Virus record (IMG/VR): IMGVR_UViG_3300044715_001249
Span: 1 to 52,348 of that record
Length of the DNA: 52,348 bases
Reading direction: 5' to 3' (one strand)
From: a virus
Lineage: Duplodnaviria; Caudoviricetes
Below the pieces are notes generated by a model, which was not told the DNA's origin, did no database searches, and saw only the letters and a list, made by a program, of their open reading frames with translations. Shown piece by piece: positions 7,870 through 50,577 of the stretch. A program made the translations under genes and the position numbers. How positions within the stretch are numbered: the first letter of the stretch is position 1; each line of letters opens with the position of its first letter.

Positions 7870-9909
7870 ATGATCACCGCCATCGACACCGAGACCGAGC
7901 TCGCGGGCAATCGCAACCCGATCCCGCGGCTGGCTTGCGTGTCGATGGCGTCCGAGCTTGGCGTCGAGGTCGTGCACCACAGCGACCCGCGCTTGTTCTC
8001 GATGGTGGTCGGGGCGCTGGCGGGCGGTGCCGTGTTCGCCAACGCCCCGTTTGATTTGTTCGCGCTGTGGCGTCACCTCGGCCCCAAGCTGTGGCCGCAC
8101 ATCCGCGCCGCGCTTGAGGCCGGGCGCGTGTTCGATGTCTTGACCCGCGAGAAGCTGATCGACATCGCTGCCGGCAAGCATCGCCAGCGCGGCGCGTACA
8201 ATCTCGGAGCCGTGGCCGAGCGCCGCGCGGGCATCAAGCTCGACAAGCACGACCCCTGGCGCCGCCGCTACGGCGCCTTGATCGACATCCCGATCAAGGA
8301 CTGGCCGATCGCCGCGATCGAGTACTCGCAGCGCGACGCATGGGGCACGTGGCGCGTGTACCAAGAACAAGAGGCCGAGCGTGCGCGGCATCGGATCGAC
8401 GTGTTCCTCGACGCGCCGGCCCAGGCCCGCGCCCACCTCGCGCTGTACGCGATGACGCTGCGCGGGATCCACACCGACGCCGCCCGCGTCGAGGCGCTCG
8501 ATCGGTTGCTCTCGGAGCGGATCCGACGGCTCGAGGCGCGCATCCTGATCGACAAGCTCGGCCGGTACAAGCACAAGAAGAAGCGCCCGAGTCCCGTGGT
8601 GCGCGCCAAGGCCGCGGCGCAGGCCGCCCTCGTCGAGTGGTGCCGCGCGACGGGCCGGCAGGCCACACGCAACGACCTGACGGACGCCGCGCGCATGCGG
8701 GGCGAGACGCTGGGGTCGATCGCCATGTCCAAGAAGGCGCTCGAGGCCGCCGGGGTCCCGCGCGGGAAGTGGCTCGACCTCGACCTCGTCGACAAGGCCG
8801 ACCCGTTCAAGGTCGCGCACCCGCTCGAGGTGTATCGCGAGCTCGGCGGGCTGCGGGCGGCCTACTCCAAGAACATCCCCGTTCTGCGCCACCCTGTGAT
8901 CCGCACGCGGTACGACGAGCTCGTGAGCTCGGGCCGCACGAGCGCGTCCGGGTTCAAGTCGATCCAGGTCGAGGACGCGGACGACGACGACGACGATAGC
9001 CTCGCGGACTTCGATTGCGAGCTCGAACCCGGCGACGAGTGGGTCGGCACGAACACGCAGAACTTCGGCCGCGACGGCGGCTGGCGCGAGTGCTTGATCC
9101 CGCCGCCCGGCAAGCGCCTGGGCTCGACCGATTACGGCGCGCTCGAGCTCGTGACGTTCGCGCAGGTACAACTCGACATGCTCAAGCGCTCGACGCTCGC
9201 CGACCTCCTGCGCGCGGGCAAGGACCCGCACCGGGCATTCGCTGCCGAGCACGTACTGCGGATCCCCTACGATTTTTACAGCAAGGCCCAGCACAACGAC
9301 GCGCGCCAGCTGGCGAAGGCGTGGAACTTCGGCAAGCCCGGGGGCATGGGCGAGGGTCGGTTCATCGAGTGGGCGTGGGTGACGTACGACGTCGCGATCA
9401 CGCCGGCGCAGCACAAGCAGATCGACGCGGTCTATCACGCGGCGTTCCCAGAGGTGCGCATGTTCTGGCACGCGATCAAGAGCAAGATGCAGACCGGGCA
9501 CGGCGATCGCGGCCCGGTCTACACCGTGGTGCAGCCGCGCACGCATCGGATCCGCGGGGGCTGCGGATTCCCTGACGCCGCGAATACCCACTTTCAGGGG
9601 CTCGGCGCGGACGTGGCCAAGCGCGCGGCCTGGCTCTTGTTCTGCGCCGGCCTCGACCCGTCCTCGCCCCTGCACGGCTGCTACCAGATTCTGTTCGAGC
9701 ACGACGCGTTCTCGACCGTCATCGCCGACAGCCCCGATCACGTGCCGTGGCCGAAGGGGACCCCCAACGCCGCGGCCGGGGCGTGCGCTTGCCGGGGCTG
9801 CTCGCAGCTCGCAGAGCAGGAACGGATCATGATCGCGGCCTCGGCCGAGCTGTGCCCAGACGTGCCGATGAAGGTTGAATCGACGAACACCGATCGGTAT
9901 CAGAAGTGA
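7870..9909 (+). CDS. polA: Phage family A DNA polymerase with 3'-5' exonuclease domain
   Basis: Exo I (IDTET), Exo II (NAPFDL), Exo III (YSQRD); motif A (DYGALEL), motif B (RQLAKAWNFG), FQGLGAD, motif C (HD). Confidence 0.92.
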   Translation: MITAIDTETELAGNRNPIPRLACVSMASELGVEVVHHSDPRLFSMVVGALAGGAVFANAPFDLFALWRHLGPKLWPHIRAALEAGRVFDVLTREKLIDIAAGKHRQRGAYNLGAVAERRAGIKLDKHDPWRRRYGALIDIPIKDWPIAAIEYSQRDAWGTWRVYQEQEAERARHRIDVFLDAPAQARAHLALYAMTLRGIHTDAARVEALDRLLSERIRRLEARILIDKLGRYKHKKKRPSPVVRAKAAAQAALVEWCRATGRQATRNDLTDAARMRGETLGSIAMSKKALEAAGVPRGKWLDLDLVDKADPFKVAHPLEVYRELGGLRAAYSKNIPVLRHPVIRTRYDELVSSGRTSASGFKSIQVEDADDDDDDSLADFDCELEPGDEWVGTNTQNFGRDGGWRECLIPPPGKRLGSTDYGALELVTFAQVQLDMLKRSTLADLLRAGKDPHRAFAAEHVLRIPYDFYSKAQHNDARQLAKAWNFGKPGGMGEGRFIEWAWVTYDVAITPAQHKQIDAVYHAAFPEVRMFWHAIKSKMQTGHGDRGPVYTVVQPRTHRIRGGCGFPDAANTHFQGLGADVAKRAAWLLFCAGLDPSSPLHGCYQILFEHDAFSTVIADSPDHVPWPKGTPNAAAGACACRGCSQLAEQERIMIAASAELCPDVPMKVESTNTDRYQK

Positions 9910-9958
9910 CGATTTTTTCTAGACACGCCCGCCCCGAGCCCGTAGAGATCAAGAACCG

Positions 9959-10165
9959 ATGCGACTGTCATCCACGATCACCGACGACGAGATCACGCAC
10001 GTGTGCGAGTTGATCGCCACAGGTCAGAGCTACGTGCCTGTACCGCGATGCGGTCGCGTGCTGCTCGCGTGCATGCACCTTGGCTTGTTCGACGACCCAA
10101 CCCGCGCCGTGCCGACGCTGACGCCGGCCGGGCTCGCCCGCGCCGAGGGGAGGCCGTACCCGTGA
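9959..10165 (+). CDS. Hypothetical protein
   Basis: Clean ORF after a promoter-like T-tract; GTGA overlap downstream. Confidence 0.5.
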   Translation: MRLSSTITDDEITHVCELIATGQSYVPVPRCGRVLLACMHLGLFDDPTRAVPTLTPAGLARAEGRPYP

Positions 10166-11096: not shown

Positions 11097-12211
11097 CCCA
11101 CCGCGAGACCATCGCCGAAGGGCTGGCCCGCGAGGCCGCCGAATCCGCAGCCCGCGAGGATGCGACCCGCAAGGCCCGCGCTGAGCAGCGCCTGCGCGAC
11201 ACCAACGCGACGCTGCGCGCGAAAGTCGAGACCTTGACCGCGGACCTTGCCGCGGCGAGCACCTACGCCGACGCGTTGCAGTACGTGAAGGCGAACCCGC
11301 TCGAGCCCGTGCGCATCGCCCCGCGCGAGAAGTCGAGCCGCGCGCACGAGGCGATCGCGGTCTGCGTGCTCTCCGATCTGCACCTCGACGAGAGCGTCGA
11401 CCCGGCCGAGATCAACGGGCTGAACGAGTACAACCCGGCGATCGCGGCCGAGCGTATGGATCGACTGGCGATCGGGCTCGTGTGGCAACTCGAACTCATG
11501 CGGGCTTCGGGCTCGGGTGCGGGCTACAAGATCCGCGATCTGCTCGTGCCGAACCTCGGCGACGTAACGACGAACTACTTGCGCGACGAGGACATCCACG
11601 GCAACGCGATGACCCCGATGGATGGGTTCGTGTTCGCGGCCGGCCTCGAGGTTCGATTCCTCGCGACCATCGCCGAGCGGTGCCCGTGGCTCGCACGCAT
11701 CCATTGCCCGCGCGTGCCGGGCAATCACGACCGCATGTCGTTGACCCGCCGCACGCCGTTTCGCAAGCGCGTGGCGCTGAGTTCGGCGCCCCTGCTCGCG
11801 CACATGATCGCGAGCGCGCCGGAGATCCGCGCCGACAAGCGCATCACGATCGAGCTGAGCCACGCCGAACATGTCTATGTCGATGTCTTCGGCAAGACCC
11901 TCCGCGGCATGCACGGCGATCGGTTCAAATATCAGGGCGGCGTGGGCGGGATCTTCGTTCCGGCGCGGCGTCACGTCCAAGGCCTGAACAAGACGCGCCA
12001 CGCCGAGATCACGATCTTCGGCCACTACCACACACAGAAGGCCGACGATCTGTGGATCTCGAACGGATCGCTGATCGGCCCGAACGCGTACTCGATCGCG
12101 AACGGAATGGACCCAGAGCCGCCGGCCCAAGTGTTTTTCCTGATCGACAAGGCTCGTGGCAAACGCAACGTCACGCCGATCCAGGTCGGCCGAAAGGATG
12201 AATGGTCATGA
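11093..12211 (+). CDS. Calcineurin-like metallophosphoesterase with N-terminal coiled coil
   Basis: All five motifs present: SDLH, GD, GNHD, HG, GHYH. TTG start with AAGGAG RBS. Confidence 0.88.
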   Translation: MTHRETIAEGLAREAAESAAREDATRKARAEQRLRDTNATLRAKVETLTADLAAASTYADALQYVKANPLEPVRIAPREKSSRAHEAIAVCVLSDLHLDESVDPAEINGLNEYNPAIAAERMDRLAIGLVWQLELMRASGSGAGYKIRDLLVPNLGDVTTNYLRDEDIHGNAMTPMDGFVFAAGLEVRFLATIAERCPWLARIHCPRVPGNHDRMSLTRRTPFRKRVALSSAPLLAHMIASAPEIRADKRITIELSHAEHVYVDVFGKTLRGMHGDRFKYQGGVGGIFVPARRHVQGLNKTRHAEITIFGHYHTQKADDLWISNGSLIGPNAYSIANGMDPEPPAQVFFLIDKARGKRNVTPIQVGRKDEWS

Positions 12212-12753
12212 CCTCCGGCCCCTACATGATGGCACGATCTGGGCGACGATTCTACTTCGCCGCCCCTGACCCAGAGGCGATCGACCTCGGCGACATCGTG
12301 TTTGCGTTGCGGTACCTGCACCGCTATACCGGGCACGTCGGCCGGTATGACGTCGGCGTGCATAGCGTCAACGTGCTCGCGTGCGCCCGCGAACTCGGGG
12401 CCGACCATGCAACGCAGCGCGCGGCCCTCATGCATGACGCGCACGAGGCTTTCGTGGGCGATGTGTCGTCGCCGTTGAAAGCCGCGATGCGGGCCGAGCT
12501 CGGCATGGATGTGGCGTGTCCGTACGATGAGATCGAGGACCGCGCTGCGCTCGCCGTCCGGCGACGGTTCAAGATCGAGGGCTTCGACGAGGCTCTCGTG
12601 GCCAAGGCCGATCGCATGGTCACGCACGCCGAGGCGCTGCATTTCCTCGGCGAGCCCGCTCGAGCTTGGGCCGCTGACCCGTGGACCGGGCTGCGGTACG
12701 AAATGCACCCCGAGCGGTTCGCCTGGGCGTGCCAGGACTGGGGGATCGTGTGA
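12208..12753 (+). CDS. HD-domain phosphohydrolase (YfbR/YfdR-like 5'-deoxynucleotidase)
   Basis: RYTGH, VGVHS, ALMHDAHEAFVGD..SPLK and KAD motifs. Confidence 0.85.
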   Translation: MTSGPYMMARSGRRFYFAAPDPEAIDLGDIVFALRYLHRYTGHVGRYDVGVHSVNVLACARELGADHATQRAALMHDAHEAFVGDVSSPLKAAMRAELGMDVACPYDEIEDRAALAVRRRFKIEGFDEALVAKADRMVTHAEALHFLGEPARAWAADPWTGLRYEMHPERFAWACQDWGIV

Positions 12754-13156: not shown

Positions 13157-13419
13157 CCGACCGAAAGCTAGCACTAGAACTCGCCCTCGCCGATGTCGCG
13201 GCCGAACTCATGGCCGCGCGCATGTCCTGGCCCCCGTTCAACTCGGCGCACGAGGGCTACGCCGTCGCGGCCGAAGAGGTCGACGAGCTGTGGCAGCACG
13301 TCAAGGTCAAGCAATGCAATCGCGACCTCGACGCGATGCGGCGCGAGGCGATCCAGGCCGCGGCCATGTTCGCCGCTTTCGCCGCTGAGTGCTGCGGCGA
13401 GAAGACGGGGAGGACGTGA
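13153..13419 (+). CDS. MazG-like all-alpha NTP pyrophosphohydrolase
   Basis: SAHEGYAV-AAEEVDELW ... RREAIQAAAM; GAGGA RBS. Confidence 0.72.
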   Translation: MTDRKLALELALADVAAELMAARMSWPPFNSAHEGYAVAAEEVDELWQHVKVKQCNRDLDAMRREAIQAAAMFAAFAAECCGEKTGRT

Positions 13420-14066
13420 TGGACTACAGCAACGGACGAACCGCCGGGGATGATGCGATCGCGTGCGATATGCCGATGTGCAGTCGCGATGCCGAGCGTG
13501 GTGGACGATGCTACGCGCATCGTCACATCGATCAGGATTTCACGCTTTCGGCCGCGGCCGCGGCCGCGCCCAAGCCCCGCGCCGAGATCGAGGCCGAGAA
13601 GGCGGCCAAGCCGCGGCCCGACCTGTTGCCGCCCGCTGCGCTCGCGCTCGCGCTGCATCACAAGCGCAGTATCTCGGAAGCCTTCGACGCCTTCGCCCGA
13701 TTCACGGCGACGCGGGATCGGTTCGCGCTCGGCTCGGCGCTCGACTGCATCTTGTTCGAGATTGGCGGCGACCGTGCTACGGCCCTCATGGCCGCGGGCG
13801 AGATCATGGGCGTGGGCCTGCGCAAGCACGGGCCGTGCACGTGGCGGATCGCAGGCACCGAGCAGGCCGACCCGCAGACGCACTACGCCTCGGCGGTGCG
13901 GCATATCCTCGAGCACTGCGCCGGCGTCACCGTCGACCCGGACTCTGGCAAGCACCCGCTCTTGCACGCGGTCTGCCAGATCGCGATCATGCTCAACCTG
14001 ATCGACGACCCGCCGAACTACCCCGAGGACAACGACGGCCGTGCCATGATCGGGAGGCCAAAGTGA
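13419..14066 (+). CDS. DUF5664-like dATP/dGTP diphosphohydrolase domain protein with N-terminal Cys/His cluster
   Basis: KPRPDLLPP...GLRKHG..TW...SAVRH...DPDSGKHPLLHA pattern; GGAGG RBS. Confidence 0.75.
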   Translation: MDYSNGRTAGDDAIACDMPMCSRDAERGGRCYAHRHIDQDFTLSAAAAAAPKPRAEIEAEKAAKPRPDLLPPAALALALHHKRSISEAFDAFARFTATRDRFALGSALDCILFEIGGDRATALMAAGEIMGVGLRKHGPCTWRIAGTEQADPQTHYASAVRHILEHCAGVTVDPDSGKHPLLHAVCQIAIMLNLIDDPPNYPEDNDGRAMIGRPK

Positions 14067-18114: not shown

Positions 18115-18876
18115 TCACGTGTCGAACGCCGACCCGATCGGGATCGTGAGCTCGACCGGGATCACGGCCCTGGCCCAGCATCGGCAGTTGATCGGCTGGC
18201 CCGGCAGGCCCTCGACCGGGTCGCCGTCGGGGTAGGGCAGGATCCGCCCGTGCAAGGCTTGATGCGCCTCGCGCACGCGATCATCCTCCTGCGTCACCCA
18301 CTCGAACTCGGTCGCCCCAATCGCCCGCGCGCGCTCGGCCTGGATCTGCGCGTGCAGGTTCGCGATCTGGTGCTGCGCGATCACCTTGAGCCGGCCCTCA
18401 AGCGAGCCGTAGGCCGTCGGGATCCCGTTCGTGGCCCACTCCGCTTGCAGCTCGGCCGAGCTCATGCCGAGGTCGAGGGCCGCGACGATGTCCTTGCGCA
18501 ACGCCTCGGCGACCTCGTCGCGCACGCCCGTGATCTTGGCCGCGGCCTCGCGGCTCCATTTCTCGACGGGGTCGAGGGTGTCACCGCGGGCCCGGGGCTT
18601 GCGTCGCGCAGCTGCAGCCCGCTCCCATCGACCCCAGCCCGAGGCCGAGCGCGCCCCGACCTTGGCCATGATCGCGGCCACGATGGCGCGGATGCGCTTG
18701 TCGGACCACGTGCGGCGCAGCGCGGCGCCGAGGGCCCGGGCGTCGGCCGGGGTCTTGACCCGCGGGAGCGTCGCCTTGATCCGCGCCACCATCGGCGCGA
18801 GCGCACGCCGTAGCTCGACCTCGAGCCCGCGCGGGGCCGGGGATCCGGCCGTCTCACGGGGCCGAGGGAGGGGCAT
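18115..18876 (-). CDS. Head morphogenesis / minor head protein (SPP1 gp7, MuF family)
   Basis: FEWVTQEDDRVREAH...PGQPINCRC. Confidence 0.88.
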   Translation of the reverse strand: MPLPRPRETAGSPAPRGLEVELRRALAPMVARIKATLPRVKTPADARALGAALRRTWSDKRIRAIVAAIMAKVGARSASGWGRWERAAAARRKPRARGDTLDPVEKWSREAAAKITGVRDEVAEALRKDIVAALDLGMSSAELQAEWATNGIPTAYGSLEGRLKVIAQHQIANLHAQIQAERARAIGATEFEWVTQEDDRVREAHQALHGRILPYPDGDPVEGLPGQPINCRCWARAVIPVELTIPIGSAFDT

Positions 18877-18949: not shown

Positions 18950-19234
18950 ATGAGCCGCCGCAAGAACACCGCCGCCCGCGTCCCCTTCTCGGTCAAGGTC
19001 ATCCGCCCGTTCTCCGATGCGTCCGGCGTCGACTGCCTGATCGACGTGCTTGGATTTCGCTTCTCGGCAAACGTGCTCGGCGACGAGCGCGTGCAGATCC
19101 TGCCCGGACAGAGCGGGTCGGTCGCTGCGTCGCGTCGTGCGTATAAGCAAGCGCGCGCGGACTTCGCCGCGGCGCTGGCCGCCACGGTCGACGCTACCTG
19201 GCGCGAGGCGAATCGTGCGATGTACGCCGAGTGA
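18950..19234 (+). CDS. Hypothetical protein (moron-like, antisense to morphogenesis genes)
   Basis: Fills the gap between the MuF-like and portal genes; has its own promoter. Confidence 0.7.
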   Translation: MSRRKNTAARVPFSVKVIRPFSDASGVDCLIDVLGFRFSANVLGDERVQILPGQSGSVAASRRAYKQARADFAAALAATVDATWREANRAMYAE

Positions 19235-19236: not shown

Positions 19237-21069
19237 TTACGGCACCACGCCCCCACCGCCGGGGGCATCGGGCTCCGGCTCCTGGTCGGTCGGGTCGTTC
19301 GGATCCTCGGGCTCGACGATTTCCTCGTGCGCCTTGGCCATCGCCTCGACCGCGGCGAGGCTCACGACGCGGTGCGAGCCGAAGCCCCAAAACGGCAGGC
19401 CGCGCTCGATCATCCGCGTGATCGTCCGGGTCTTGATCCCGAATCGCTGCGCCGCGGCCTGCACCGTCACGCGGTCGCCCGGCAGCTCGTCGAGCGACGG
19501 CGCGGGGGCTCCGGCCGGGGCCGGCCCACCCGGCACAGGCGGCGGCCCGAGCACGCTCGCTTCGCGCCCGCGCAGGTTGGGGAACGCAACGCCGAGCGCC
19601 CCGATCCCCTGAGGGTAGGTCAGCTCGCGCATGTTTACCGCGCGCATGATGTCGATCAGGCTCGCGATCTGTGCGCCGTTCATCGCCTGATCGGCCGGGG
19701 TCGCGACCTCGGCCGGGGGCGAGGGCGTAGCCCCCGCAGCCACGCCCGCGGCCACGTCGGCCGGGTCGAGCTCGAGCGGATCGGCGTTCGCCTCGCCCGC
19801 GATCTTGATCATGCCGACATCGCCCCGGACGAACCGCGCCTCGCGGATCTCGTCCGCCGTCAGCACGCCCTTGTCGACATAGGCCGCGTCCGCGGTCGCG
19901 TTCTTGCTGTGGATCTCTGCGTCGCCCTCGGCGGATCGCGTCCACAGCGGATCCCACTCGATCTCGAACGAGTCGATCGCGAGGCCGTGCAAGCGGATCG
20001 CGATCTCGACGCCGCGCCGCAGCCCGGGATCGATCTCTTGCTTGCGCCACGATTCGACGCGCTTGTGGTAGATCTCCTGCGGCCCGCTCAACTCGCCGCC
20101 GCGCAGCCCGGTCGGGCTTTCGTTGAACAAGATCTCGCGTGGGTACTCGGTGCCGGCGACAAGCCGGCTCTCGCTCTTGTCCGCGAGCTCCGCCGCGCCG
20201 GTGAGTCCCTGCGTCACGGTGCCGAGCTCGTCGTCCTTGTCCATGACGGCGAGGCCGTAGGCATCGAGCGCCCTGCGTGTTGCGTCGGCCCGCTTCTGGA
20301 TCCGATCCATGCCGGCCTTCGTCTGCGCCTCTTGCTTGTATCCGCTGAGCCGCAGGTAGAGCAGGCTTGCCCCGTACATCATCGACACGCCGTGCGCTGC
20401 GGTGGCGCCGTAGCGGCCGAGATCGTCGAAGTGACGATCGAGCACCGACGGGCCCCAGCCCGTCGGTGACGGCGCCTCGTATTGCGCCTCGATCGGGAGC
20501 TTGATCGGTTCGTGGGGGATCGCCCGCGTGTGGTGCAGGTCGACCGAGGCGCTTGCGATGCCAGTCACCTGATAGGCGAGCGCCATCCCGTACGTCGGCG
20601 ACATCAACCCCACGTCTTGCTCGAGGGGACGCGCTCGCTCGGCCGGCACCGCGGCGAACCGCAGCAAGCGGGACGCCGGGCCGATCGCCATCGGCTGCTT
20701 CGGCTCGCCCGAGTTGAGCACGGCGATCGTCGTGATCGCGCCGCCGTATTGCCGCGCCCACTCGGCGCTCTGCCGCTCGGCCGTGGTCAGCCCAGCCGCG
20801 TCGAGCTCGGCCTTGATGGCCGCGGCGTCGAACTTGTCCGCGTCCGGGCCCGCGACCTTGGTGATTTTCCAGTCGACCGAGAACGCGGTCTCGACGATCA
20901 GCCCGACGATCCGCGCGGCGATCGGGTGCTGCCGGATCAGGGCGTCGATCATGCGCGGCGGCAGCGGCTCCCGCTGCTGGAACAGGATCCCCGCGTGCTT
21001 GTCCTTGGCAGATCCCAGGCTCGAGGTCGTCGAGGCCCAGTCGTCGATCCGTGGTGCGCGGCGCGGCAT
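19237..21069 (-). CDS. Portal protein (DUF1073 type) with C-terminal winged-HTH extension
   Basis: Between terL and the MuF-like gene; WARQYGGA, WGPSVL, YPREILFNESPTGL, FEIEWDPLW, GVLTADEIR motifs. Confidence 0.85.
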   Translation of the reverse strand: MPRRAPRIDDWASTTSSLGSAKDKHAGILFQQREPLPPRMIDALIRQHPIAARIVGLIVETAFSVDWKITKVAGPDADKFDAAAIKAELDAAGLTTAERQSAEWARQYGGAITTIAVLNSGEPKQPMAIGPASRLLRFAAVPAERARPLEQDVGLMSPTYGMALAYQVTGIASASVDLHHTRAIPHEPIKLPIEAQYEAPSPTGWGPSVLDRHFDDLGRYGATAAHGVSMMYGASLLYLRLSGYKQEAQTKAGMDRIQKRADATRRALDAYGLAVMDKDDELGTVTQGLTGAAELADKSESRLVAGTEYPREILFNESPTGLRGGELSGPQEIYHKRVESWRKQEIDPGLRRGVEIAIRLHGLAIDSFEIEWDPLWTRSAEGDAEIHSKNATADAAYVDKGVLTADEIREARFVRGDVGMIKIAGEANADPLELDPADVAAGVAAGATPSPPAEVATPADQAMNGAQIASLIDIMRAVNMRELTYPQGIGALGVAFPNLRGREASVLGPPPVPGGPAPAGAPAPSLDELPGDRVTVQAAAQRFGIKTRTITRMIERGLPFWGFGSHRVVSLAAVEAMAKAHEEIVEPEDPNDPTDQEPEPDAPGGGGVVP

Positions 21070-21088: not shown

Positions 21089-22510
21089 TCACTCATACGG
21101 GGACCACACGGGCAGATCCTCGATCCCGCGGAGCAACAGCGCGTGCACGGCGTACACACACGCGTCGAGCCGGTTCGGCGACGCGGCGCCTTCGGTCCAC
21201 GTGATCCACTCCTGTTCGAGTGCGTAGAACTTGCCCGCCATGTGCGCCTGATTCGTCTCGAACAGCGTCGCCACAGGCTCGGCCCGGGCCCGCTTGCTCT
21301 CGCCAGTGTGCACGTCGGAGACGACGATCCCGCCCGCGTCGTTGCGCTGCCGCTGTGCCGTCTTGATCGCCGCGATGACACCGCCCCGGCCGCCCTGATT
21401 GATCTCGGCCACGATCTCGACCGGGCACTCGAACGCGCGCGCGTACTTGACCGCGGTGTCGACCGCGAGCTCGGCCCATTGGGTGAAGCTCAGGCGCCCC
21501 GCGGTCAAGTCCTCGAGCACGAACGCGTTCGCGGGCGCGCCGTGGTCCGCCCCGGCGACCACGATCCCGGTCGGGTCGCTGTCGTCGTGATTGTCGAGGC
21601 CCGGGTCGATCGCGACCACGACGCGCGAGAGTTCGTGCGGGGCGTACTCGACCCGCGAGCCGTCGAGCATCGCCTGCGTGAGCAGGATCGTCGAGTCGAG
21701 CAGCATCGCCTCGTACTCCTGCAGCCACTCGCGCGAGCCTCGGATCGATTTGGCGTAGGCCGAGATCTCGACGAATCGATTTTCCAGGCTCGACCCGCGG
21801 CGCAACGTGACTTGCTCGCGCATCGCGTCGCTCAGCAGCCAGCGCGTGATCTCGTTCGGCTTGGGCGTCGTCGTGATCAGGCCCCGCATCGGCGAGCCGT
21901 CGCGGAACTTCGCGCGCACCGATGGCAGAAACCCGAGCTTGAAATGCTCAGCGGCGCGCTTGGGCCACGCCGCGATCTCGTCGGCCCAGAACAGCGAGAG
22001 GCCGTCGCCGCGGCCGAAGTCGGCTTGATGCGCGCCGTAGCAGCGCAGGATCGATTGCCGCTTGGGCGGCCCGATGTACGCGACGCCTCGATTCTCGATG
22101 TGGCGGAACGGGATCCCGCGCCGCTCGCAGACCGCTTGCAGCCCCTGCGGATCGTAGGGCGATCCGCACGACGCGAGCGGGTGCCCGATCATCGTCGCGC
22201 GCATGTCGTCCGCGTTCTTGGCGATCAGCGCGCCGCGAAACGGGCCGCGTTCCTCGTGCTCGTTCGCGACCCACTCGGCCCCGGTGCGTGTCTTGCCGAA
22301 GCCTCGGCCTGCGACCATCAACCAGATCTGCCGGCAGTCCTCGGGCCGCAGCTGCGCGTCGCGGGCCGCAAGCTCCCACATCTTCGACACCGCGACGCGG
22401 GCCGCCGGGTCGAGGCGCTCGATCGCGGCGCGCATGGCCGCGAGCCCGCGCCTCGCCCGGAGCTCGCGCAGCGCCCGAGCTGCGGCGCGGAGGTCGACCG
22501 GCGCGGACAT
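21089..22510 (-). CDS. terL: Terminase large subunit
   Basis: AGRGFGKTRTGAEW (Walker A), WADE (Walker B), TTTPKP, AIDP and SPNRLDA nuclease motifs. Confidence 0.95.
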   Translation of the reverse strand: MSAPVDLRAAARALRELRARRGLAAMRAAIERLDPAARVAVSKMWELAARDAQLRPEDCRQIWLMVAGRGFGKTRTGAEWVANEHEERGPFRGALIAKNADDMRATMIGHPLASCGSPYDPQGLQAVCERRGIPFRHIENRGVAYIGPPKRQSILRCYGAHQADFGRGDGLSLFWADEIAAWPKRAAEHFKLGFLPSVRAKFRDGSPMRGLITTTPKPNEITRWLLSDAMREQVTLRRGSSLENRFVEISAYAKSIRGSREWLQEYEAMLLDSTILLTQAMLDGSRVEYAPHELSRVVVAIDPGLDNHDDSDPTGIVVAGADHGAPANAFVLEDLTAGRLSFTQWAELAVDTAVKYARAFECPVEIVAEINQGGRGGVIAAIKTAQRQRNDAGGIVVSDVHTGESKRARAEPVATLFETNQAHMAGKFYALEQEWITWTEGAASPNRLDACVYAVHALLLRGIEDLPVWSPYE

Positions 22511-22512: not shown

Positions 22513-23556
22513 TCAGGCCGTGAGCTGGATAATGGTGCCGACGGAACCGGCTGCGCCCGCGCCGCCGGCGAGGTGCCCCGCGCCGCCGGCCCCGCCCGCG
22601 ACGCTGATCGTGCCGGCGCCCGTGTACGCGCGCGAGACGAGGTAAATCAGGCCGCCACCGCCACCGCCACCGCCGCCGTTGCCGATCGCGTCGGGGCCGG
22701 TGAACGCCTGCCCGCCCGCGCCGCCGCGCGCCTCGATCGTGCCCGCGTTCGCGAGCCGATAGGCGAAGATCACGATCACGCCGCCGCCCGAACCGCCACC
22801 GCCGCCGGTGCCCGAGTCGCCGCCACCGCCACCGCCACCGCCGGCCCCGCCTTGCAGGACCGTGACGGTCCCGGAGCCGCCGACGATCCAGCCATGCGCC
22901 GCGCTGATGTGACGCACGCCGTTCTGCCCCAGCCCGCCCGCGCCCGCGGCGACTCCGGCCGATCCGCCGGCCTCGCTCGCGTCCACGCCCGCGTCGTTGC
23001 TCGCCCCGCCCGCCCCGCCGTTGCCGCCGACGCCCGCCGACGCAGCGCCGCCGGCTGAACCTGCGGTGCTCGAGTTCCCGCCGGCACCGCCCACGGCGCT
23101 ACCGCCGATCGAGCCGACCGCCAGCGCTGCGCCTGCGGTGCCGCCCGTGACGTTGTTCGCGGGCTGCGCTCCTGCGTTGCCGTTCTGCCGGATCACGCCG
23201 CCGACCTGGATCGTCAGCAGCCCGCGCACGAACACGCGATAGCCTGCGGTTACGAGGATGCCCGTACCCGTGACCGTCAGCGTCTCGTAATACATGTCGC
23301 GCGTGAGGGTCGTTGTGCCGCCGGTGATCGTCACGACCCCGTCGACACCATCGCCGTACACGCCACGGCCTGCATCGGCGAGCCACAGAATGATCTTGTT
23401 CAACGCGAAGTTGATATGGTCGACGGGGATCGTAGCGCCCGCGACGAGACCCTGCGCCAGCGCGATCGGTTCGTTCTTCGTCGGCGAGCCCGAGCGAACG
23501 CCGCTGCTGTAGTTCGTGTCGGTCGCCCACGTGGGTTCGGTCGTCTCGGCTGGCAT
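22513..23556 (-). CDS. Glycine-rich tail fibre/adhesin-like protein
   Basis: Baseplate-attachment-like N-terminus (WAT...NFALN) followed by polyglycine repeats; follows the wedge gene. Confidence 0.6.
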   Translation of the reverse strand: MPAETTEPTWATDTNYSSGVRSGSPTKNEPIALAQGLVAGATIPVDHINFALNKIILWLADAGRGVYGDGVDGVVTITGGTTTLTRDMYYETLTVTGTGILVTAGYRVFVRGLLTIQVGGVIRQNGNAGAQPANNVTGGTAGAALAVGSIGGSAVGGAGGNSSTAGSAGGAASAGVGGNGGAGGASNDAGVDASEAGGSAGVAAGAGGLGQNGVRHISAAHGWIVGGSGTVTVLQGGAGGGGGGGGDSGTGGGGGSGGGVIVIFAYRLANAGTIEARGGAGGQAFTGPDAIGNGGGGGGGGGLIYLVSRAYTGAGTISVAGGAGGAGHLAGGAGAAGSVGTIIQLTA

Positions 23557-24192: not shown

Positions 24193-25416
24193 TCACCCGG
24201 TGATCACGTAGATCGCACCCGCCCCGCCAACACCGCCCGCGCCGCCGTTGCCGGCCTGGCAGCCCGAGCCACCGCCGCCCCCGCCCCCGCCGTGGGATCC
24301 ACCGGCCCCGCCGGCGCCGCCCGCGGTGCTCGGCGTGTTCGTCGAGCCGCCGCCCCCGCCACCTTCGCCGCCGCGGTGTCGAGCTCCGGCCGTGCCGGCC
24401 CCGCCTGCGGTCGGCGAGGCGCCGCCCGTGCCGGCCGTGCCGCCGCTGCCGGCGATGATCGATCCGCTCGAGCCGCCCGCGCCCGCGGCCTGCACGGTGC
24501 TGACGTTCACACCACCACCGGCACCACCGCCGCAACCGCCGAAGATCGACGAGCCGCCAGCGGTCGACACCGGCGTCGCGGATCGCCCGCCACCGCCGGC
24601 CCCGCCGTACTCGGTGCACGTCGGCGCGGTGACGCTATTCGAGCCGTTGCCGCCCGACCCGCCCGACACGCTCGTGCCTGACGTCGTGCCCGGCCCGCCG
24701 CCTGCGCCGACGCTCGCGGTCCCGTCGGTGCCCGCGGCACCCGTGCCGCCACCGCCACCGCCACCGCCGGCCGTGCCGGCGTTGTCCCCGAGCTGCCCGC
24801 CGCCGCCGCCGTACGCGGTGAGGCGCAGCGTACCACTGCCGAACGTCGTGTCCCCGCCGACCTGCCCGGCAGTGCCGTCGCCGTTCGTGCCGCCCGAGTA
24901 GCCCGCGCCTGCGATGCCGCCTGCGCCGACCGTGCCCGTCACGGTGTCGCCAGCGGCCGCACACAGATCCCCGAGCCGATAGGTCCGTTCGACGCGAGCG
25001 CCACCGCCGCCACCGCACCCGCCCGTGCGGCTCGTGCCGCCGTTCGCGTGAGCCGCACCGCCGCCACCACCACCGCCGGCCCCGTACGCGATCACGCGCA
25101 CGAGCGTGTCGTCCGAGAACCCGGCCGGGCGCGTGTAAGTGAACGCGCCCGCGGTGATCCGCGACTGGACGTCCTGCGCCGGTGTGCCCGGCGCGGCCTC
25201 GAGCGCGGTCGTGCGCGTGGTCAGGTCGTACAGCCGCGCTTGATAGGCCAGCGTGCAGTCATCGACGTAGTTCGCCCACGCCGCGATCGCCCGCAGCTTG
25301 GAGTCAGCATCGGCGCGCGTGCGCGGGTTGTCGAGCTTGAGCGTGAGCAGCTCTGCGTGCGCCGCCGCGAAGCTGACGGCGGCCAAGTCGATGTCGAGCG
25401 GGGTGATGTTCGCCAT
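24193..25416 (-). CDS. Glycine-rich-domain tail fibre/adhesin
   Basis: Helical N-terminus, then RVIAYGAGGGGG...GAIYVITG; paralog of 44339-45685. Confidence 0.65.
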   Translation of the reverse strand: MANITPLDIDLAAVSFAAAHAELLTLKLDNPRTRADADSKLRAIAAWANYVDDCTLAYQARLYDLTTRTTALEAAPGTPAQDVQSRITAGAFTYTRPAGFSDDTLVRVIAYGAGGGGGGGAAHANGGTSRTGGCGGGGGARVERTYRLGDLCAAAGDTVTGTVGAGGIAGAGYSGGTNGDGTAGQVGGDTTFGSGTLRLTAYGGGGGQLGDNAGTAGGGGGGGGTGAAGTDGTASVGAGGGPGTTSGTSVSGGSGGNGSNSVTAPTCTEYGGAGGGGRSATPVSTAGGSSIFGGCGGGAGGGVNVSTVQAAGAGGSSGSIIAGSGGTAGTGGASPTAGGAGTAGARHRGGEGGGGGGSTNTPSTAGGAGGAGGSHGGGGGGGGSGCQAGNGGAGGVGGAGAIYVITG

Positions 25417-25419
25417 GGG

Positions 25420-42214: not shown

Positions 42215-43525
42215 TCAGCGCGAGAGGTGGGCCGCGTACGCCTCGACGATCGGATCGTCATCGTCGGCCGCGTCGGTCTTGTGCGCGACCTCGAACGGGT
42301 TGATCGACACCGGGGCCGGGGTCGAGCTCGCGACCTCGACGAGGGCGTCGAGCACCGCGCCATCGGCCGCGTCGGCGCGCGCCTTGGCATGGGGCAGCAC
42401 GTGGGCGACGTACGCCCGCGCGAGCGCCTGATCGTCGGCGGAGTCGATGACCGAGGTCGGGAGCCCGGCCGCGGCGCTGAGCCGCTCGAGCCGACCGCGT
42501 CGGCGCACGAGGGCGGTGATCTGGTCGGGCGTCATCGATGGCATCTTCTTGTCCTTGTCCTCGTCGTCGGGGGGCATCGCGGGCTCACCAGCGGCGTCCT
42601 CAGGCGCCTCGGGCATTTCGCCCTCGGCCATGGCGGGAGCCGCCGCGGCTCCGCCCGCCTTGCGTGCATCGAGAGCCTCGGCGACGAGGGCCGCGATCCA
42701 GGTCGCGACCTCCATCTCGGTACCGTCGGGGCCGACGAGCAGCGCCTTGGTGGTCGGGATCCCGACCTCGTCGGCGAGCGCGGTCGAGATCTTGGACTGT
42801 GCGTGATCGCACCACGCCTTGACCGCGTCCATCTTGGTGCCCGCCGGGAGCTTGATCACGCGGGTGGCGCGTGCAGAGTCGAGTGTGGGCTTGCTCACGG
42901 GTGGGACCTCATGATCGGGCTTGACTTGGGTAGAGTAGCACGACTCCGCGGAATCGCGCGCGGAATCGAGCAGCACGCGCACGGCCGGGCCAGCGCGGCC
43001 CCGCTCAACGCTGGCGACGTGATTGCCGGCGAGCGCCCGCTGCACGGCGTCGTAACGCTGGCCGCCCGGGGCCGCCCCGGGCTCGGGGTGTACGTCGGCG
43101 AGGAATCCGATCGAGAGCTCGTGTTGGCCGCCGAGGATCTTGTCGATCAGCCCGGCATCGGTCACGCGCAGGCGCGCGGCCAGGTACGCGACGCCGTCGA
43201 CGTCGACGATCCGCGGCTCGGAGATCACGACGCCGCGCGAGTACTCGCGCGCGTTCGTGGCGTCGACCATCACGGGCGGGTGATCGTCGGTCACGGGCGC
43301 GTGGCGCCACGAATCGGCCGCGGCCTCGAGCTCGTCGCGCGGGCGAAACTCGAGCCAGGTCGAGCGCCCATCCGAGTACTCGAGCAAGCCGTCACGGGCG
43401 AGGTACGCGTCGACGTCGAGGTAGCCCTCGGGCGTCTTGACGGCGCGCGCATGGCCGGGCGAGGACGGGGCGTCGCCCCAGTCGAGCGCGATCCGATCGA
43501 TGCGAAGAACGCGAGTCACAGCCAT
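42215..43525 (-). CDS. DUF2213 prohead protease/scaffold protein
   Basis: TPEGYL, PVTDDHP, ELSIGF, YDAVQR...NHVASVERGRAG. Confidence 0.88.
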   Translation of the reverse strand: MAVTRVLRIDRIALDWGDAPSSPGHARAVKTPEGYLDVDAYLARDGLLEYSDGRSTWLEFRPRDELEAAADSWRHAPVTDDHPPVMVDATNAREYSRGVVISEPRIVDVDGVAYLAARLRVTDAGLIDKILGGQHELSIGFLADVHPEPGAAPGGQRYDAVQRALAGNHVASVERGRAGPAVRVLLDSARDSAESCYSTQVKPDHEVPPVSKPTLDSARATRVIKLPAGTKMDAVKAWCDHAQSKISTALADEVGIPTTKALLVGPDGTEMEVATWIAALVAEALDARKAGGAAAAPAMAEGEMPEAPEDAAGEPAMPPDDEDKDKKMPSMTPDQITALVRRRGRLERLSAAAGLPTSVIDSADDQALARAYVAHVLPHAKARADAADGAVLDALVEVASSTPAPVSINPFEVAHKTDAADDDDPIVEAYAAHLSR

Positions 43526-44076: not shown

Positions 44077-44349
44077 ATGCTCAGCACCAAGCAAGCCCGC
44101 GTTCTGACTCACCTCGCCGCCCGCTCGATCTCGGGGGCGCCGTCGGTCCTCTCCATCGTCCGCGCGCTCGAGACGGACCGCGGCCACGCGGCCGGCTATC
44201 TCCGACTGGCGCGGCTCGCCAAGCGTGGGATGGTGACCATCCTCCCGCTGCACGAGGGTGCGCGCCGCGTGCTGATCACGGCCGCGGGTCTGCGCGAGGT
44301 TGCGGGCGTGTACCCGTACGCGGCGGATGCAGGCCGCGTCACCACGTGA
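44077..44349 (+). CDS. Winged-HTH transcription regulator (LexA-DBD/MarR-like)
   Basis: LSTKQARVL...PSV..I...LARLAKRGMV...RRVLITAAG. Confidence 0.65.
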   Translation: MLSTKQARVLTHLAARSISGAPSVLSIVRALETDRGHAAGYLRLARLAKRGMVTILPLHEGARRVLITAAGLREVAGVYPYAADAGRVTT

Positions 44350-45685
44350 ACACGTAGACCGCGCCGGAGCCGCCTGAGCCGCCGTTGCCGCCGCGGTTGC
44401 CCGCGCCTTCGCCGACCCCGCCACCGCCACCGCCACCGCCGTGGGATCCGCCAGCCCCGCCGTTGCCGCCGTTGGTGCCGGTCGTGATCGTGCCGCCGCC
44501 GCCACCGCCACCTGCACCGCCGCGCGCTGCACTGCCATCGGCGCCCGCCGAGCCAGCGGTCGGCGATACGCCGCCCGTGCCCGCGGCCCCGCCGGTACCG
44601 GCCGCGATCACGCCCGAGGCGCCGCCGGCCGTGGGCGCGATCAGGGCCGGGGTCACGGTCGCCCCGCCACCGCAGCCACCGCCGCCCCCGCCGAACAAGG
44701 ATCCGCCGCCGGCACCGTTGGCTGGCACGCTCGTGTGCCCGCCCCCGCCCCCGCCCCCGCTCTCCGCCGAGATCGCGGCCGTGGCAGAGGCTCCGCCGTT
44801 GCCGCCGCAGCCCCCGCTCGGGGTCGCTGGTGTACCCGGCCCGCCGCCTGCGCCGGCCGAGGCCGTGCCCACGGCGCCCACCGCACCGGCGCCACCGCCA
44901 CCGCCACCGCCGCCGGCCGTGGCCGCGTTGTCTCCGAGCTGCCCGCCACCGCCGCCGAAGGCTTGGGCGAGGTTGGTGCCGCTCGAGAACTGGCTCGTGC
45001 CCCCGGCCGCGCCCGCGGTCCCGTCCGCGCCGGTGTTTCCGACACCGGCGACGCCCGAGGCGCCGACCGTGACGGGCTCGGTCGGGCCGAGTTCGGACGC
45101 TCGATACCAGCGCTCGACCCGAGCACCGCCCCCGCCCCCGCACCCGCCCGTGCGCACGACACCGCCGGTCTGCGACGCGCCACCGCCACCGCCACCGCCA
45201 CCGCCGAACAGCACGACGCGCACGAACGTCGGCGAGAACGTCGTGGGCTTCGTCCACGTCGGCGAGCCCGGCGTGGTGAAGGGTTGCACGTCGGCCTGCG
45301 CGGCGCCGTTGATCGTCTGCTCAGCACCAGCGGCGTTGTATCGCTTCCATCCCGCTCCATGATGATACACGCACGATTCGGCGGGCGCGAGCGTGCCCGA
45401 CCACATGCGAGCAAGCGTCGCGTTGTCGCTGAACGAGATCGTGACCGTTTGCGCGGCTGCGTCGGTGTTGAACACCGAGATCATTTCGACGCTGCGCTGC
45501 GTGCTCGCGGCCGGGCTCCCGACGATCGTCACCGGCGTGGTGCCGTTCGAGTTGATGCGCGTGCGCCCGGCCGTGAAATCGGTTGCGGTCTGGTCGGCCC
45601 AGAACGCCGTGCACTGCACGGTCGTGGCCGAGCCCGAGGCAAGCACAAGCGCGATCGTGTCGGTCGTTGCGGATAGCGTGATCAT
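44339..45685 (-). CDS. Glycine-rich-domain tail fibre/adhesin (paralog of 24193-25416)
   Basis: Beta-rich N-terminus, then polyglycine domain ending GAVYVFTW. Confidence 0.65.
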   Translation of the reverse strand: MITLSATTDTIALVLASGSATTVQCTAFWADQTATDFTAGRTRINSNGTTPVTIVGSPAASTQRSVEMISVFNTDAAAQTVTISFSDNATLARMWSGTLAPAESCVYHHGAGWKRYNAAGAEQTINGAAQADVQPFTTPGSPTWTKPTTFSPTFVRVVLFGGGGGGGGGASQTGGVVRTGGCGGGGGARVERWYRASELGPTEPVTVGASGVAGVGNTGADGTAGAAGGTSQFSSGTNLAQAFGGGGGQLGDNAATAGGGGGGGGAGAVGAVGTASAGAGGGPGTPATPSGGCGGNGGASATAAISAESGGGGGGGHTSVPANGAGGGSLFGGGGGGCGGGATVTPALIAPTAGGASGVIAAGTGGAAGTGGVSPTAGSAGADGSAARGGAGGGGGGGTITTGTNGGNGGAGGSHGGGGGGGGVGEGAGNRGGNGGSGGSGAVYVFTW

Positions 45686-46920
45686 CGGTGATAGGCCCTC
45701 GTCTGGACTTGCGCGTGGGTCATGGCTGCGATCGCGGATGCGAGCTGCGCCGCGGTGAGCTCGGCGGCCGCGCCCGCGCCGGCGGTCGTCTTGCCGGCGA
45801 ATCGAGGCCCGGCCGCGAACTGGAGATCGGTGATCGCCCCGCTCGCCGCCACGCTCGCGAGCGCGACCGAGACCACGCTCGTACCGCTGCGGCGCAAGAA
45901 CTCGCCGTCGGCGATCGCGTCCACGTCAAGCGTGGTCCCGTTCGCGTCGAGTTGCGTCGCGGCCCCGCCCCCGCCACCGGGCGCGACCCATGTCCCATCC
46001 GCGCGCAAGAAGTTCGACGTGCCGCCGCCGCTGAGCGGCACGAGCCCGGACGCGGACGCGGTGAAGTTCGCGATCACGTCGCCGCCGCCCGTGACGTGCG
46101 CCGTCGCGTGACTCGTCGGGGTTCGCGCGTCGCTCAGGCGCGCGTCGTTGCCGACGCAGACCGTCGTGCCCGTCGAGCCCGTGGCGAGGCGCGCGAACGG
46201 CAGGGTCCCGGTCGTGAGATCGGCGGCCGAGCCCGAGCTCGCGACCGCGACAAGGCCGAGCGTCGTGCGGGCCGCGGACGCGTCCGCGTCATCGACGAGC
46301 GTCGCGCCGAAGGCCGAGATCCCGTGCACGGCCGAAGTCACCGCGGCGTGGGTCGCGATCCCGCCCGCGGCCTCGTACGCGCTCGCGGCCGTGGTCGCGG
46401 CCGTGCCAAGGCCGAGCGTTGTGCGCTGCGCCGCGGCGTCGGCATCGTCGAGGATCGCGCGACCGGCCGCCGTGATGTCGGTCACGTCGACCATCACGTG
46501 CGTGTGCGCGGTCGGGGCTCGCGCGTCGCTCAGCCGCGCATCGTTGCCGATGCAGACCGTCGACCCCGTCGAGCCCGTGGCGAGGCGTGCGAACGGAAGC
46601 GTCCCGGTCGTGAGATCGGCCGCGCTAGCGCTCGACGCGACAGTCGCCAGCCCGAGGGCGGCGCGAGCCGCGGCTGCGTCGAGGGCCGCGATGATGGTTG
46701 CACCGAAGGTCGTGATCCCGTGCACGCCCGAGGTCAAGGCCGCGTGCGTGGCCACGTCCCCGCCGCCGGATCCGTCCTCGCCGGGCTCCCCCTGGGGCCC
46801 GGGCGGGCCCTCGATCACGTTCGGGATCGTGATGCGGATCACGTCACCGAAGCGCAGCAGCTGCGAGCCGCGCGTCTCGACGACACCTGAGAGCTGGATC
46901 GGTCGGCGCGTCGAGGCCAC
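45682..46920 (-). CDS. Tail fibre protein with internal duplication
   Basis: Short collagen-like GPPGPQGEPG; repeated DDADA.A.RTTLGL and GNDARLSDAR units; start taken as GTG 46920. Confidence 0.72.
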   Translation of the reverse strand: MASTRRPIQLSGVVETRGSQLLRFGDVIRITIPNVIEGPPGPQGEPGEDGSGGGDVATHAALTSGVHGITTFGATIIAALDAAAARAALGLATVASSASAADLTTGTLPFARLATGSTGSTVCIGNDARLSDARAPTAHTHVMVDVTDITAAGRAILDDADAAAQRTTLGLGTAATTAASAYEAAGGIATHAAVTSAVHGISAFGATLVDDADASAARTTLGLVAVASSGSAADLTTGTLPFARLATGSTGTTVCVGNDARLSDARTPTSHATAHVTGGGDVIANFTASASGLVPLSGGGTSNFLRADGTWVAPGGGGGAATQLDANGTTLDVDAIADGEFLRRSGTSVVSVALASVAASGAITDLQFAAGPRFAGKTTAGAGAAAELTAAQLASAIAAMTHAQVQTRAYHR

Positions 46921-50057: not shown

Positions 50058-50102
50058 GTCCTTATCCTAGCTCAAGCCGCGGACATCGTCAAGAAGAAAT
50101 CG
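50058..50102 (-). promoter_or_regulatory. Repeated phage promoter cassette (copy E)
   Basis: CGATTTCTTC-TTGACG-ATGTCCGCGGCTTGAGC (17 nt)-TAGGAT-AAGGAC-ATG. Confidence 0.75.
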
Positions 50103-50577
50103 GCACGTCCTCAACGTTTTCCGTGGCGAGCTCGATCGCGCGCAGGACCTCGGCCGCGGCCTCGACCGGGTCGGGGGCATCGGCGGCCGGGTCGTGCCTC
50201 GAGCGGCGCTCGCGCGCGAGCTCGACGATCTTGCCCGCGGCCGCGATCCGGTCCGCGCCTCGGCCGACCTGTGACTCCGCCACCCACACGCGCAGGGCAT
50301 AGGCCTCCAGCTCGTCCGGGGTCGCGTCCTCGGCCGGGGGCTCGAGGTGGCTCACGGCCTCGACGACCGCGGCCTTGGCCGCTTGCTTGGCGGTCGGGGC
50401 CGCTGGACAGCTCAAGGGCCATTTGGGCCCGTACACGGCCCGCTCCCGCTGAATCTGCCTTCGGACGGTCCGCCGATCGACCCCGAACTTGGTCGCGATC
50501 ACGTGCTGCGGGGTGTCGTTGAGCAGCAGCAGCCGCAGGGCTTCGGAATCGATGACGGGGGCTGTCGGGTCGGCCAC
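50089..50577 (-). CDS. HTH DNA-binding protein; terminase small subunit candidate
   Basis: IATKFGVDRRTVRR HTH followed by a helical region and an acidic tail; TGC-TACACT upstream. Confidence 0.5.
   Translation of the reverse strand: MADPTAPVIDSEALRLLLLNDTPQHVIATKFGVDRRTVRRQIQRERAVYGPKWPLSCPAAPTAKQAAKAAVVEAVSHLEPPAEDATPDELEAYALRVWVAESQVGRGADRIAAAGKIVELARERRSRHDPAADAPDPVEAAAEVLRAIELATENVEDVPISS

Follow-up and report, generated by a model that had tools for sequence, protein, structure and literature searches.

A phage portal protein that ends in a winged helix-turn-helix domain of the excisionase/Nu1 class on a flexible tether

The stretch of DNA analyzed here (the window) is the tailed-phage record IMGVR_UViG_3300044715_001249 (Duplodnaviria; Caudoviricetes), a complete virus record of 52,348 bp with 70% G+C. 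On its minus strand lies a portal gene whose product extends well beyond the portal core and ends in a small domain of DNA-binding type, a winged helix-turn-helix (HTH), carried on a flexible tether. The features of this gene are the following, with residue numbers counted along the encoded protein.

19237..21069, minus strand: portal gene, 610 amino acids, stop codon at 19237-19239 included
19885..20949, minus strand: portal core (Phage_portal_3, DUF1073, PF06381), residues 41-395, Pfam score 155.3 bits against a cut-off of 33.8
19549..19683, minus strand: three-helix domain without a Pfam name, here called the mid domain, residues 463-507, with AlphaFold2 (AF2) helices at 465-479, 485-495 and 503-507 and a predicted local distance difference test (pLDDT) value of about 80
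19483..19548, minus strand: Pro-rich flexible linker, residues 508-529, pLDDT below 50 at 513-519
19324..19482, minus strand: winged HTH of the HTH_17/excisionase/Nu1 class, residues 530-582, matched by HTH_17 and TIGR01764 near their cut-offs and supported by the AF2 model and fold matches
19240..19323, minus strand: acidic disordered C-terminal tail, residues 583-610

A previous sequence-only reading of the interval 19237-19700, which encodes residues 457-610, had proposed that portal and HTH are fused in frame, and this is upheld by the present analysis, with neither a stop nor a frameshift between the two and with recurrence of the fusion in relatives. The 610-residue open reading frame (ORF), read on the minus strand from 21069 to 19237, is uninterrupted and contains zero internal stops. 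Its helical segment beginning with the peptide MNGAQ has residue 463 as its first residue, and the HTH peptide quoted at the time corresponds to residues 533-577 (19473-19339); its start had been placed one codon too early, at 19476 instead of 19473. Within the HTH segment, the G+C content at third codon positions (GC3) reaches 0.95 when read in the portal frame, compared to 0.68 and 0.50 in the other two frames, and a comparison of 52 HTH codons between the window and the related locus L004 yields 28 identical codons, 14 synonymous differences and 10 residue changes. The portal frame is coding throughout, linkers included. Moreover, the portal 3′ end was retrieved for 10 distinct related loci and encodes the HTH in every one of them, and since the fusion recurs across independent contigs, it represents neither a chance read-through nor an assembly join. 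Two genes joined artificially during sequencing or assembly are ruled out as an explanation by the continuous frame in 10/10 loci and in 30/31 database relatives.

As a portal, the protein is an ordinary, divergent member of the Phage_portal_3 family. It was assigned to phrog_146 in the PHROG scan (E 2e-60), scored 104 bits with TIGR01555, under the equivalog cut-off of 196, and matched the Pam3 portal (8hds) in a profile search of the Protein Data Bank (PDB; E 1.6e-30). The AF2 model of the portal (pLDDT 78.6) likewise retrieved the Pam3 portal with Foldseek (8hds, E 2e-18), together with the portals of T1, FCWL1, E217 and Pa193, and these matches recover the portal fold with its clip, stem, wing and crown; identity of the core to portals of cultured phages is about 23%. 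The crown helices run on to about residue 445 (down to 19735), with AF2 helices at 380-400, 405-414 and 436-445, and in the AF2 model a disordered linker separates them from the mid domain, which begins at residue 463. For the mid domain, the fold search yielded generic helical matches only, and its structural neighbours in the ESM Atlas serve as a lead only. The Pro-rich linker that follows differs in length between relatives and is otherwise variable, apart from a small conserved Pro-Ser motif before the HTH.

At the level of sequence models, the HTH scores at the border of recognition. Using hmmscan, HTH_17 (PF12728) matched residues 535-580 with 23.3 bits in the whole protein and with 26.3 bits (E 9e-6) in the last 94 residues, against a cut-off of 27 bits, whereas a six-frame search of the genome returned a single HTH_17 match, at 19330-19467 on the minus strand, with 27 bits and flagged over the cut-off. 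TIGR01764 (‘excise’) matched the same domain with E 8e-5 and 23 bits, compared to a cut-off of 28.8, and weak PHROG matches (5e-5 to 2.6e-4) pointed to a recombination directionality factor, an excisionase and a small terminase, the latter being phrog_57 (E 2.6e-4). Searches of the PDB by sequence were marginal, with BldC at E 0.05-0.1 (profile) and the small terminase subunit (terS) structure 7lwr at E 1.4 (single sequence).

In the AF2 model, the domain adopts the topology beta-alpha-alpha-beta-beta-alpha (strand 533-535, helices 536-543 and 547-555, a strand pair at about 560-570 and a helix at 571-582), with pLDDT values of 77-89. Foldseek searches with the 154-residue C-terminal model returned 7lwr, 7lw0 and 7lxs as top matches (probability 1.0, target template-modelling (TM) score 0.67-0.68, 29-31% identity), all three of which bear the depositors' molecule name ‘Terminase, small subunit’. 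The next matches were RdfS, P2 Cox, BldC, the DNA-binding domain of lambda gpNu1 (1j9i; TM 0.59 and 30% identity to the portal HTH), Pukovnik Xis and 6hn7. A VIA fold search gave 7lxs with Z 7.1 and a root-mean-square deviation of 1.8 Å over 52/55 residues at 29% identity, then 6hn7 (Z 6.2), the Xis structure 4j2n (Z 5.6) and BldC (Z 5.4), followed by MerR-type regulators; all of these Z values lie below 8, a range where a common arrangement alone can give a match. However, the fold matches span the whole small domain, concur with the sequence models and belong to one fold class, and these properties together indicate that the earlier assignment to the Nu1/Xis-type winged HTH is correct at the fold level, with HTH_17 at about 27 bits and with terS DNA-binding domains, Xis, RdfS and BldC as closest folds. 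As modelled, the domain is a borderline-scoring yet structurally clear member of the HTH_17/excisionase class. Several of its fold neighbours, which comprise terS domains, Xis, RdfS, Cox, BldC and MerR-type proteins, were solved on DNA. The conserved second helix of the HTH was also considered as a sign of a conserved DNA target and discarded, as its conserved residues are the class-wide HTH signature and the other positions vary.

To place these features in the context of related portals, we collected 31 relatives by a word-indexed search (34-72% identity), all from metagenomes or metagenome-assembled genomes; four with a coverage of at most 83% (P0007, P0008, P0016 and P0032) were set aside and the other 27 aligned with the query. 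A precomputed PF12728 match is present in 10/31 relatives, and according to local hidden Markov models (HMMs) cut from the 28-sequence alignment, 30/31 relatives have kept the HTH. It aligns in 28/28 sequences, with D532, G562, G564, V569 and S570 invariant. The HTH is more conserved than the portal core, with a mean pairwise identity of 0.50 versus 0.43; the corresponding values are 0.43 for the mid domain, 0.32 for the Pro-rich linker and 0.21 for the acidic tail. Although so little of its sequence is shared, the tail has a net negative charge in 28/28 aligned sequences (-2 to -8; -8 for residues 585-610 of the window portal), and the short tails of portal-HTH representatives are net negative in 51/53 cases. 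The net charge of the HTH itself ranges from 0 to +4 across the aligned sequences.

The distribution of the C-terminal module was analyzed with a profile built from 10 sequences (the window and the fetched loci) and run against 1.84 billion cluster representatives at 50% identity, which returned 422 proteins at E≤1e-3, of which 68 reach E≤1e-10. Among the best 150 of these 422 matches, 66 combine a Phage_portal_3-type core with the HTH (the mid domain being present in 47 and missing in 19), 21 have the core and the mid domain only, 35 the mid domain only, 23 the HTH only and 2 the mid domain and HTH, and 3 matched none of the three local models. Pfam scans covered 64 distinct proteins of this set (54 plus 11, P0073 being in both). 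Most of the mid-only proteins scanned belong to other portal families (PF04860, PF06074, PF05133), an HTH_17 domain also terminates two Portal_Mu portals (P0077 and P0089), and the HTH-only matches were ordinary or tandem HTH_17 proteins or gene fragments. In a FastTree phylogeny of 96 portal cores from the profile-retrieved set, one deep clade has 72 members, 67 of which bear the HTH, and the HTH label requires 8 changes over the tree compared to a mean of 17.7 upon shuffling, with 0/500 shuffles as low. The HTH is stably retained in this deep clade. The mid domain is a mobile module: at least four Pfam families of portals (PF06381, PF04860, PF06074, PF05133) include proteins with it behind the core, in fused proteins it separates portal from MuF, and small ORFs encode it on its own (among proteins P0094-P0173).

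In contrast to its spread in metagenomes, the architecture was not encountered in cultured phages. A tblastn search with the whole portal matched 576 of 50,697 phage records, 0 of them with at least 80% query coverage, and the 30 rows listed stop at residue 411 or before; the last 154 residues had no match at E≤1 in these records. Similarly, the Portal_Mu-HTH protein P0089 matched 193 phage records, 0 at ≥80% coverage, and the 15 rows listed stop at residue 491 or before, ahead of its HTH. No cultured phage searched and no solved portal reached by the PDB profile search carries a portal-HTH fusion, in agreement with the previous statement that no characterized portal is known with such a domain. 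The same reading had counted it against its own claim if the architecture were already widespread and annotated. It is widespread, in metagenomes; its annotation amounts to the automatic PF12728 match in 10/31 relatives, and no published description was found. One portal-HTH protein, P0018, bears the NCBI name ‘anti-CBASS Acb1 family protein’; no phosphoesterase domain was seen in it, no family library scan of P0018 having been made, and the name may have spread from portal-phosphoesterase fusions. Acb1, an anti-CBASS nuclease, presumably belongs to the 2H phosphoesterase class.

The position of the HTH within the portal suggests on which side of the capsid wall it resides. According to the parts of the JBD30 and phage 812 papers considered here, crown and wing lie inside the procapsid and the virion and the clip alone lies outside, and the C-terminal extension of the window portal begins past the crown. 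In related proteins, the same position is shared with other modules: the HTH lies between portal and MuF within one polypeptide in P0070 and P0064, the order portal-HTH-2H phosphoesterase is found in 4/4 such proteins (P0074, P0087, P0091 and P0077, the last of which is a Portal_Mu protein), and P0163 has the order portal-mid domain-ADP-ribosyltransferase. P0159 stands among the relatives with a 2H phosphoesterase, ADP-ribosyltransferase or intein domain behind the portal. MuF/gp7 proteins are located in the capsid interior and are targeted to the procapsid interior by the portal, as stated in the portion of the SPP1 review considered. The interior location of the crown, together with the MuF and enzyme fusions of the relatives, suggests that the HTH occupies a capsid-interior ‘cargo slot’, and from portal topology and these fusions all twelve copies of the module are predicted to sit inside the capsid. 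The window portal thereby shows the theme of portal, mid domain, linker and HTH, in a slot that holds MuF, 2H phosphoesterase, ADP-ribosyltransferase or InPase in relatives.

The closest characterized counterpart is the portal gp19 of E217 and Pa193, which belongs to the same Phage_portal_3 family, has a MuF gene next to it and carries a long extension past crown and barrel, residues 529-765 of which are without cryo-electron microscopy density. E217 also shares the cement protein, the DUF2213 protease and the sheath of its head/tail module with the window phage. However, the slot of E217 gp19 holds an InPase domain (E 3e-43) where the window portal has a winged HTH, and the local HMMs gave no significant mid or HTH match in E217 gp19 and gp20. 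In the Pam3 portal 442/621 residues are modelled, and in the Mu-type portal gp29 the last 124 residues are lost or hidden; the tail of Mu gp29 and Mu gp30 gave no significant match to the mid and HTH models either.

Extra domains on portal and MuF proteins are already in print. The passages of Iyer et al. 2017 (PMC5512222) considered here describe portals fused to 2H phosphoesterase and InPase, and polyvalent MuF/portal proteins combine, as the window portal does, a virion anchor with extra domains thought to be packaged. These passages list ‘other HTH domains’ as rare components and describe no portal-HTH_17 architecture, and a portal with a winged HTH was not found described in the portions of the literature searched. 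In contrast to the variable effectors of polyvalent proteins, the portal family of the window retains a small DNA-binding fold across a deep clade. Toxins of the MuF kind are reportedly the subject of work by Jamet et al. in 2017.

The portal gene belongs to a minus-strand late operon that encodes, in this order, protease, cement protein, major capsid protein, neck, sheath, tube, tape measure, baseplate, fibres, terL, portal and MuF. The genes of relevance here are the following.

21089..22510, minus strand: terL, directly upstream of the portal gene, with Pfam Terminase_6N and Terminase_6C and PHROG terL families
22513-23556, minus strand: the gene preceding terL, encoding a Gly-rich tail-fibre-like protein, not terS
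18115..18876, minus strand: MuF/SPP1 gp7-family minor head protein, Phage_Mu_F E 1e-13, TIGR01641 phageSPP1_gp7
42215..43525, minus strand: prohead protease, phrog_530 head maturation protease E 4e-55, Pfam DUF2213
50089..50577, minus strand: 162-residue protein with an N-terminal HTH, sub-threshold HTH_28 and HTH_23

The order terL-portal-MuF is found in the window, L001, L004, L006 and L007, and in L001, L002, L004, L006, L007, L010 and L011 the MuF gene directly adjoins the portal gene or overlaps with it. In the window, the two are separated by a 360-bp gap between portal stop and MuF start, in which a reversed 94-residue ORF (18950-19234, plus strand) with a coding-like GC3 of 0.85 was observed; it has no Pfam, PHROG or NCBIfam match and contains one terminator-like hairpin. 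L008 has a different portal-MuF gap of about 530 bp. With an ORF in the gap of the window, another gap in L008 and abutting genes elsewhere, the portal-MuF junction looks like an insertion hot spot.

No terS gene adjoins terL in 4/4 loci with that side visible (window, L001, L004 and L007, the latter three with the gene order of the window), as had been noted previously for the window. Eight terS Pfam families had 0 matches in the six frames of the complete genome, and no terS was found in Pfam and PHROG scans of 53 predicted proteins. Phage_Nu1 (PF07471) was not among the portal matches at E≤1 and had 0 matches in six frames. Proteins of the terS type are highly divergent. The 162-residue HTH protein at 50089-50577 ranks as a weak terS candidate and could otherwise be a regulator: its ESM Atlas neighbours include a cluster auto-named ‘putative Terminase small subunit’ (0.92, with 149 shared features, fewer than the 170 typical of true members) and two ESM Atlas clusters have Terminase_5 on 13-16% of their members, and it has no PHROG, NCBIfam or PDB terS match. 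In the 50-kb relative L002, the region 8491-10001 between the Gly-rich fibre gene and the portal gene holds a 155-residue reverse-strand ORF and not terL, which indicates that the terL-portal linkage is not fixed in the group.

Several further features of the window were recorded. The divergent intergenic region 50578-50804, between the gene for the 162-residue HTH protein and a plus-strand gene, has 53-55% G+C in a genome of 70% G+C and is probably a promoter or origin region; it is the segment previously put forward as a binding target. An element of 46-81 nt with 63-93% identity occurs at 47278-47358, 47847-47927, 49031-49076 and 50024-50104, ends at the start codons of four small minus-strand genes and probably serves as a promoter or leader repeated across a set of early genes. 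The replication module encodes an HD-domain protein (12202-12753, plus strand) and a protein with a dATP/dGTP diphosphohydrolase N-terminal domain (13389-14066, plus strand), a pair that brings to mind DatZ and MazZ of phages whose genomes contain 2-aminoadenine; a PurZ resembling adenylosuccinate synthetase was not found in the scanned ORFs. Stretches of 73-76% identity are shared by the Gly-rich fibre-like paralogues (22513-23556, 24196-25419 and 44342-45925). The record is classed by IMG/VR as having direct terminal repeats, and the 50 bases shared by its two ends fall within a 9-nt Gly-rich coding repeat (1-290 and 52155-52348); the terminal identity probably reflects a circular assembly or assembly overlap and not physical ends.

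Regarding function, we tentatively favor a model, to which we give somewhat less than an even chance, in which twelve DNA-binding domains on tethers within the capsid hold the leading genome end. This corresponds to the second of two suggestions made in the sequence-only reading, namely that the domain grips packaged DNA from inside. The twelve HTH domains would hang in the capsid interior beyond the crown and would bind the phage genome in the head with little sequence specificity. The first DNA end to enter would be caught and held, which would prevent slip-back and seed spooling, and the captured end would stay at the portal and leave last. Several systems provide precedents for such an anchoring role. 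The Pam3 portal anchors a DNA lasso of about 160 bp and contacts the initiating DNA terminus, and in the part of the phage 812 work considered, charged crown termini and a wing belt have been put forward as anchors of the leading end. The anchoring elements of phage 812 and Pam3 are charged loops or molten-globule termini, whereas the window portal has a folded winged HTH on a tether. For SPP1, the sections considered describe gp7, of the MuF family, as a DNA-binding protein that is loaded through the portal and supports the start of infection; a DNA-binding function is there brought to the procapsid interior by the portal, as proposed here for the HTH, but gp7 is a separate protein present in few copies and of unrelated fold, and the window phage has a MuF protein of its own as well.

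A number of points weigh against genome anchoring. DNA binding by the portal HTH is a prediction from its fold class. The HTH is weakly basic (0 to +4) and the tail carries -2 to -8, so that the module is neutral or acidic, which is odd for a non-specific DNA clamp. The retention of the HTH is overestimated in the phylogeny, as the tree set was retrieved by the C-terminal profile and portals lacking both modules are absent from it. In addition, the virion map of Mu lacks the last 124 residues of its portal gp29, a loss ascribed to cutting by the head protease (protease I), and in light of such trimming the HTH module may not stay tethered. Finally, the enzymes found in the slot (2H phosphoesterase, ADP-ribosyltransferase and InPase) make sense only if they are released, which favors cargo.

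These last two points lead to the main, though rather unlikely, alternative, in which the portal merely loads twelve copies of the module into the procapsid, the prohead protease cuts the linker and the free HTH leaves with the DNA to act in the new host cell, e.g. as an end-protecting or early regulatory protein, and serves in relatives as a hitch that drags the fused enzyme along. Besides the loss of the Mu gp29 C terminus attributed to protease I, it would account for the portal-HTH-2H phosphoesterase proteins (4/4), for P0163 and for the portal-InPase protein E217 gp19, and it agrees with the proposal in the passages of Iyer et al. 2017 (PMC5512222) considered here that MuF/portal-fused domains are packaged and injected; a prohead protease gene is present (42215-43525), and the linkers are long and disordered, with the conserved Pro-Ser motif before the HTH. 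However, both the cleavage site and the cutting of the portal by this protease are hypothetical, and the protease is of the DUF2213 type and not of the Mu gpI family. An HTH with an acidic tail alone lacks an obvious activity in the host, in P0070 and P0064 the HTH is internal, with the portal before it and MuF after it, and flexibility accounts equally well for the missing density in E217 and Pa193. A broader form of this idea, which we regard as speculative and improbable, would make the portal C terminus a general loading dock, with the HTH, in twelve copies per procapsid, as a DNA hitch that would latch onto the genome, be freed by the head protease and be pulled into the host. If true, the HTH modules would be the first phage proteins in the host, the HTH of relatives would tow anti-defence enzymes (2H phosphoesterase, ADP-ribosyltransferase, InPase), and this would constitute an undescribed route of protein injection, with the portal as carrier and a Nu1/Xis-like domain as coupler.

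The low net charge of the HTH and a tail conserved in charge and not in sequence, as is typical of an electrostatic docking peptide, are also compatible with a protein-binding adaptor, in which winged helix and acidic tail would dock MuF, scaffold/protease or coat for recruitment to the portal vertex or for nucleation of assembly. The MuF gene comes directly after the portal gene in the head module, P0070 and P0064 have MuF fused behind the HTH, and the SPP1 portal binds gp7 strongly according to the portion of that work considered. In contrast, all close structural neighbours of the HTH are DNA-binding domains, MuF is loaded by portals that lack an HTH (e.g. E217 gp19/gp20), and the HTH is retained where MuF is covalently fused and is thus not merely a MuF dock; an adaptor role appears quite doubtful. 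Least support is given to the other suggestion of the sequence-only reading, that a ring of twelve Nu1-like domains recognizes the packaging site and/or recruits TerL and so replaces terS, at least in part. The top fold matches are indeed terS DNA-binding domains (7lxs, 6hn7 and 1j9i), in line with the weak phrog_57 match, and terL lacks a terS neighbour in all visible loci, with 0/8 terS Pfam families found in six frames. But the HTH is predicted beyond the crown and inside the procapsid, on the opposite side of the capsid wall from the terminase, which docks on the external clip. It shares the winged-HTH fold with lambda gpNu1-type terS proteins (1j9i, 7lxs, 7lwr and 7lw0, and the terS in 6hn7), yet the DNA-binding domain of gpNu1 is N-terminal, whereas that of the window is C-terminal on a portal, has no stand-alone gene and is followed by 26-28 acidic disordered residues in place of an oligomerization core and a TerL-binding region. 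The portal HTH is thus not a member of the Nu1 terS family, as it lacks defining features of that family, in accordance with the missing Phage_Nu1 match. Furthermore, the notorious divergence of terS leaves room for the candidate at 50089-50577, E217, of the same portal family, has its own characterized TerS with terL unlinked, 6.5 kb from the portal, L002 has terL away from the portal, and relatives fuse MuF or enzymes behind the portal extension. With the domain predicted on the wrong side of the capsid wall and without the other parts of a terS, we consider replacement of terS very unlikely.

Taken together, these results bear on two open questions in phage assembly, namely how the first DNA end is captured in the procapsid and what role the invisible C-terminal tails of portals play. 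In the portals of E217, Pa193, Pam3 and Mu, 124 to about 240 C-terminal residues are unresolved, and the portal described here has a recognizable folded domain of DNA-binding type in that position. The occurrence of a Nu1-like fold near terL is insufficient to call a small terminase, and the portal cargo slot, known for enzymes, also houses a non-enzymatic module. The presence of the architecture in at least 66 distinct clusters at 50% identity makes the question of the portal tail testable.

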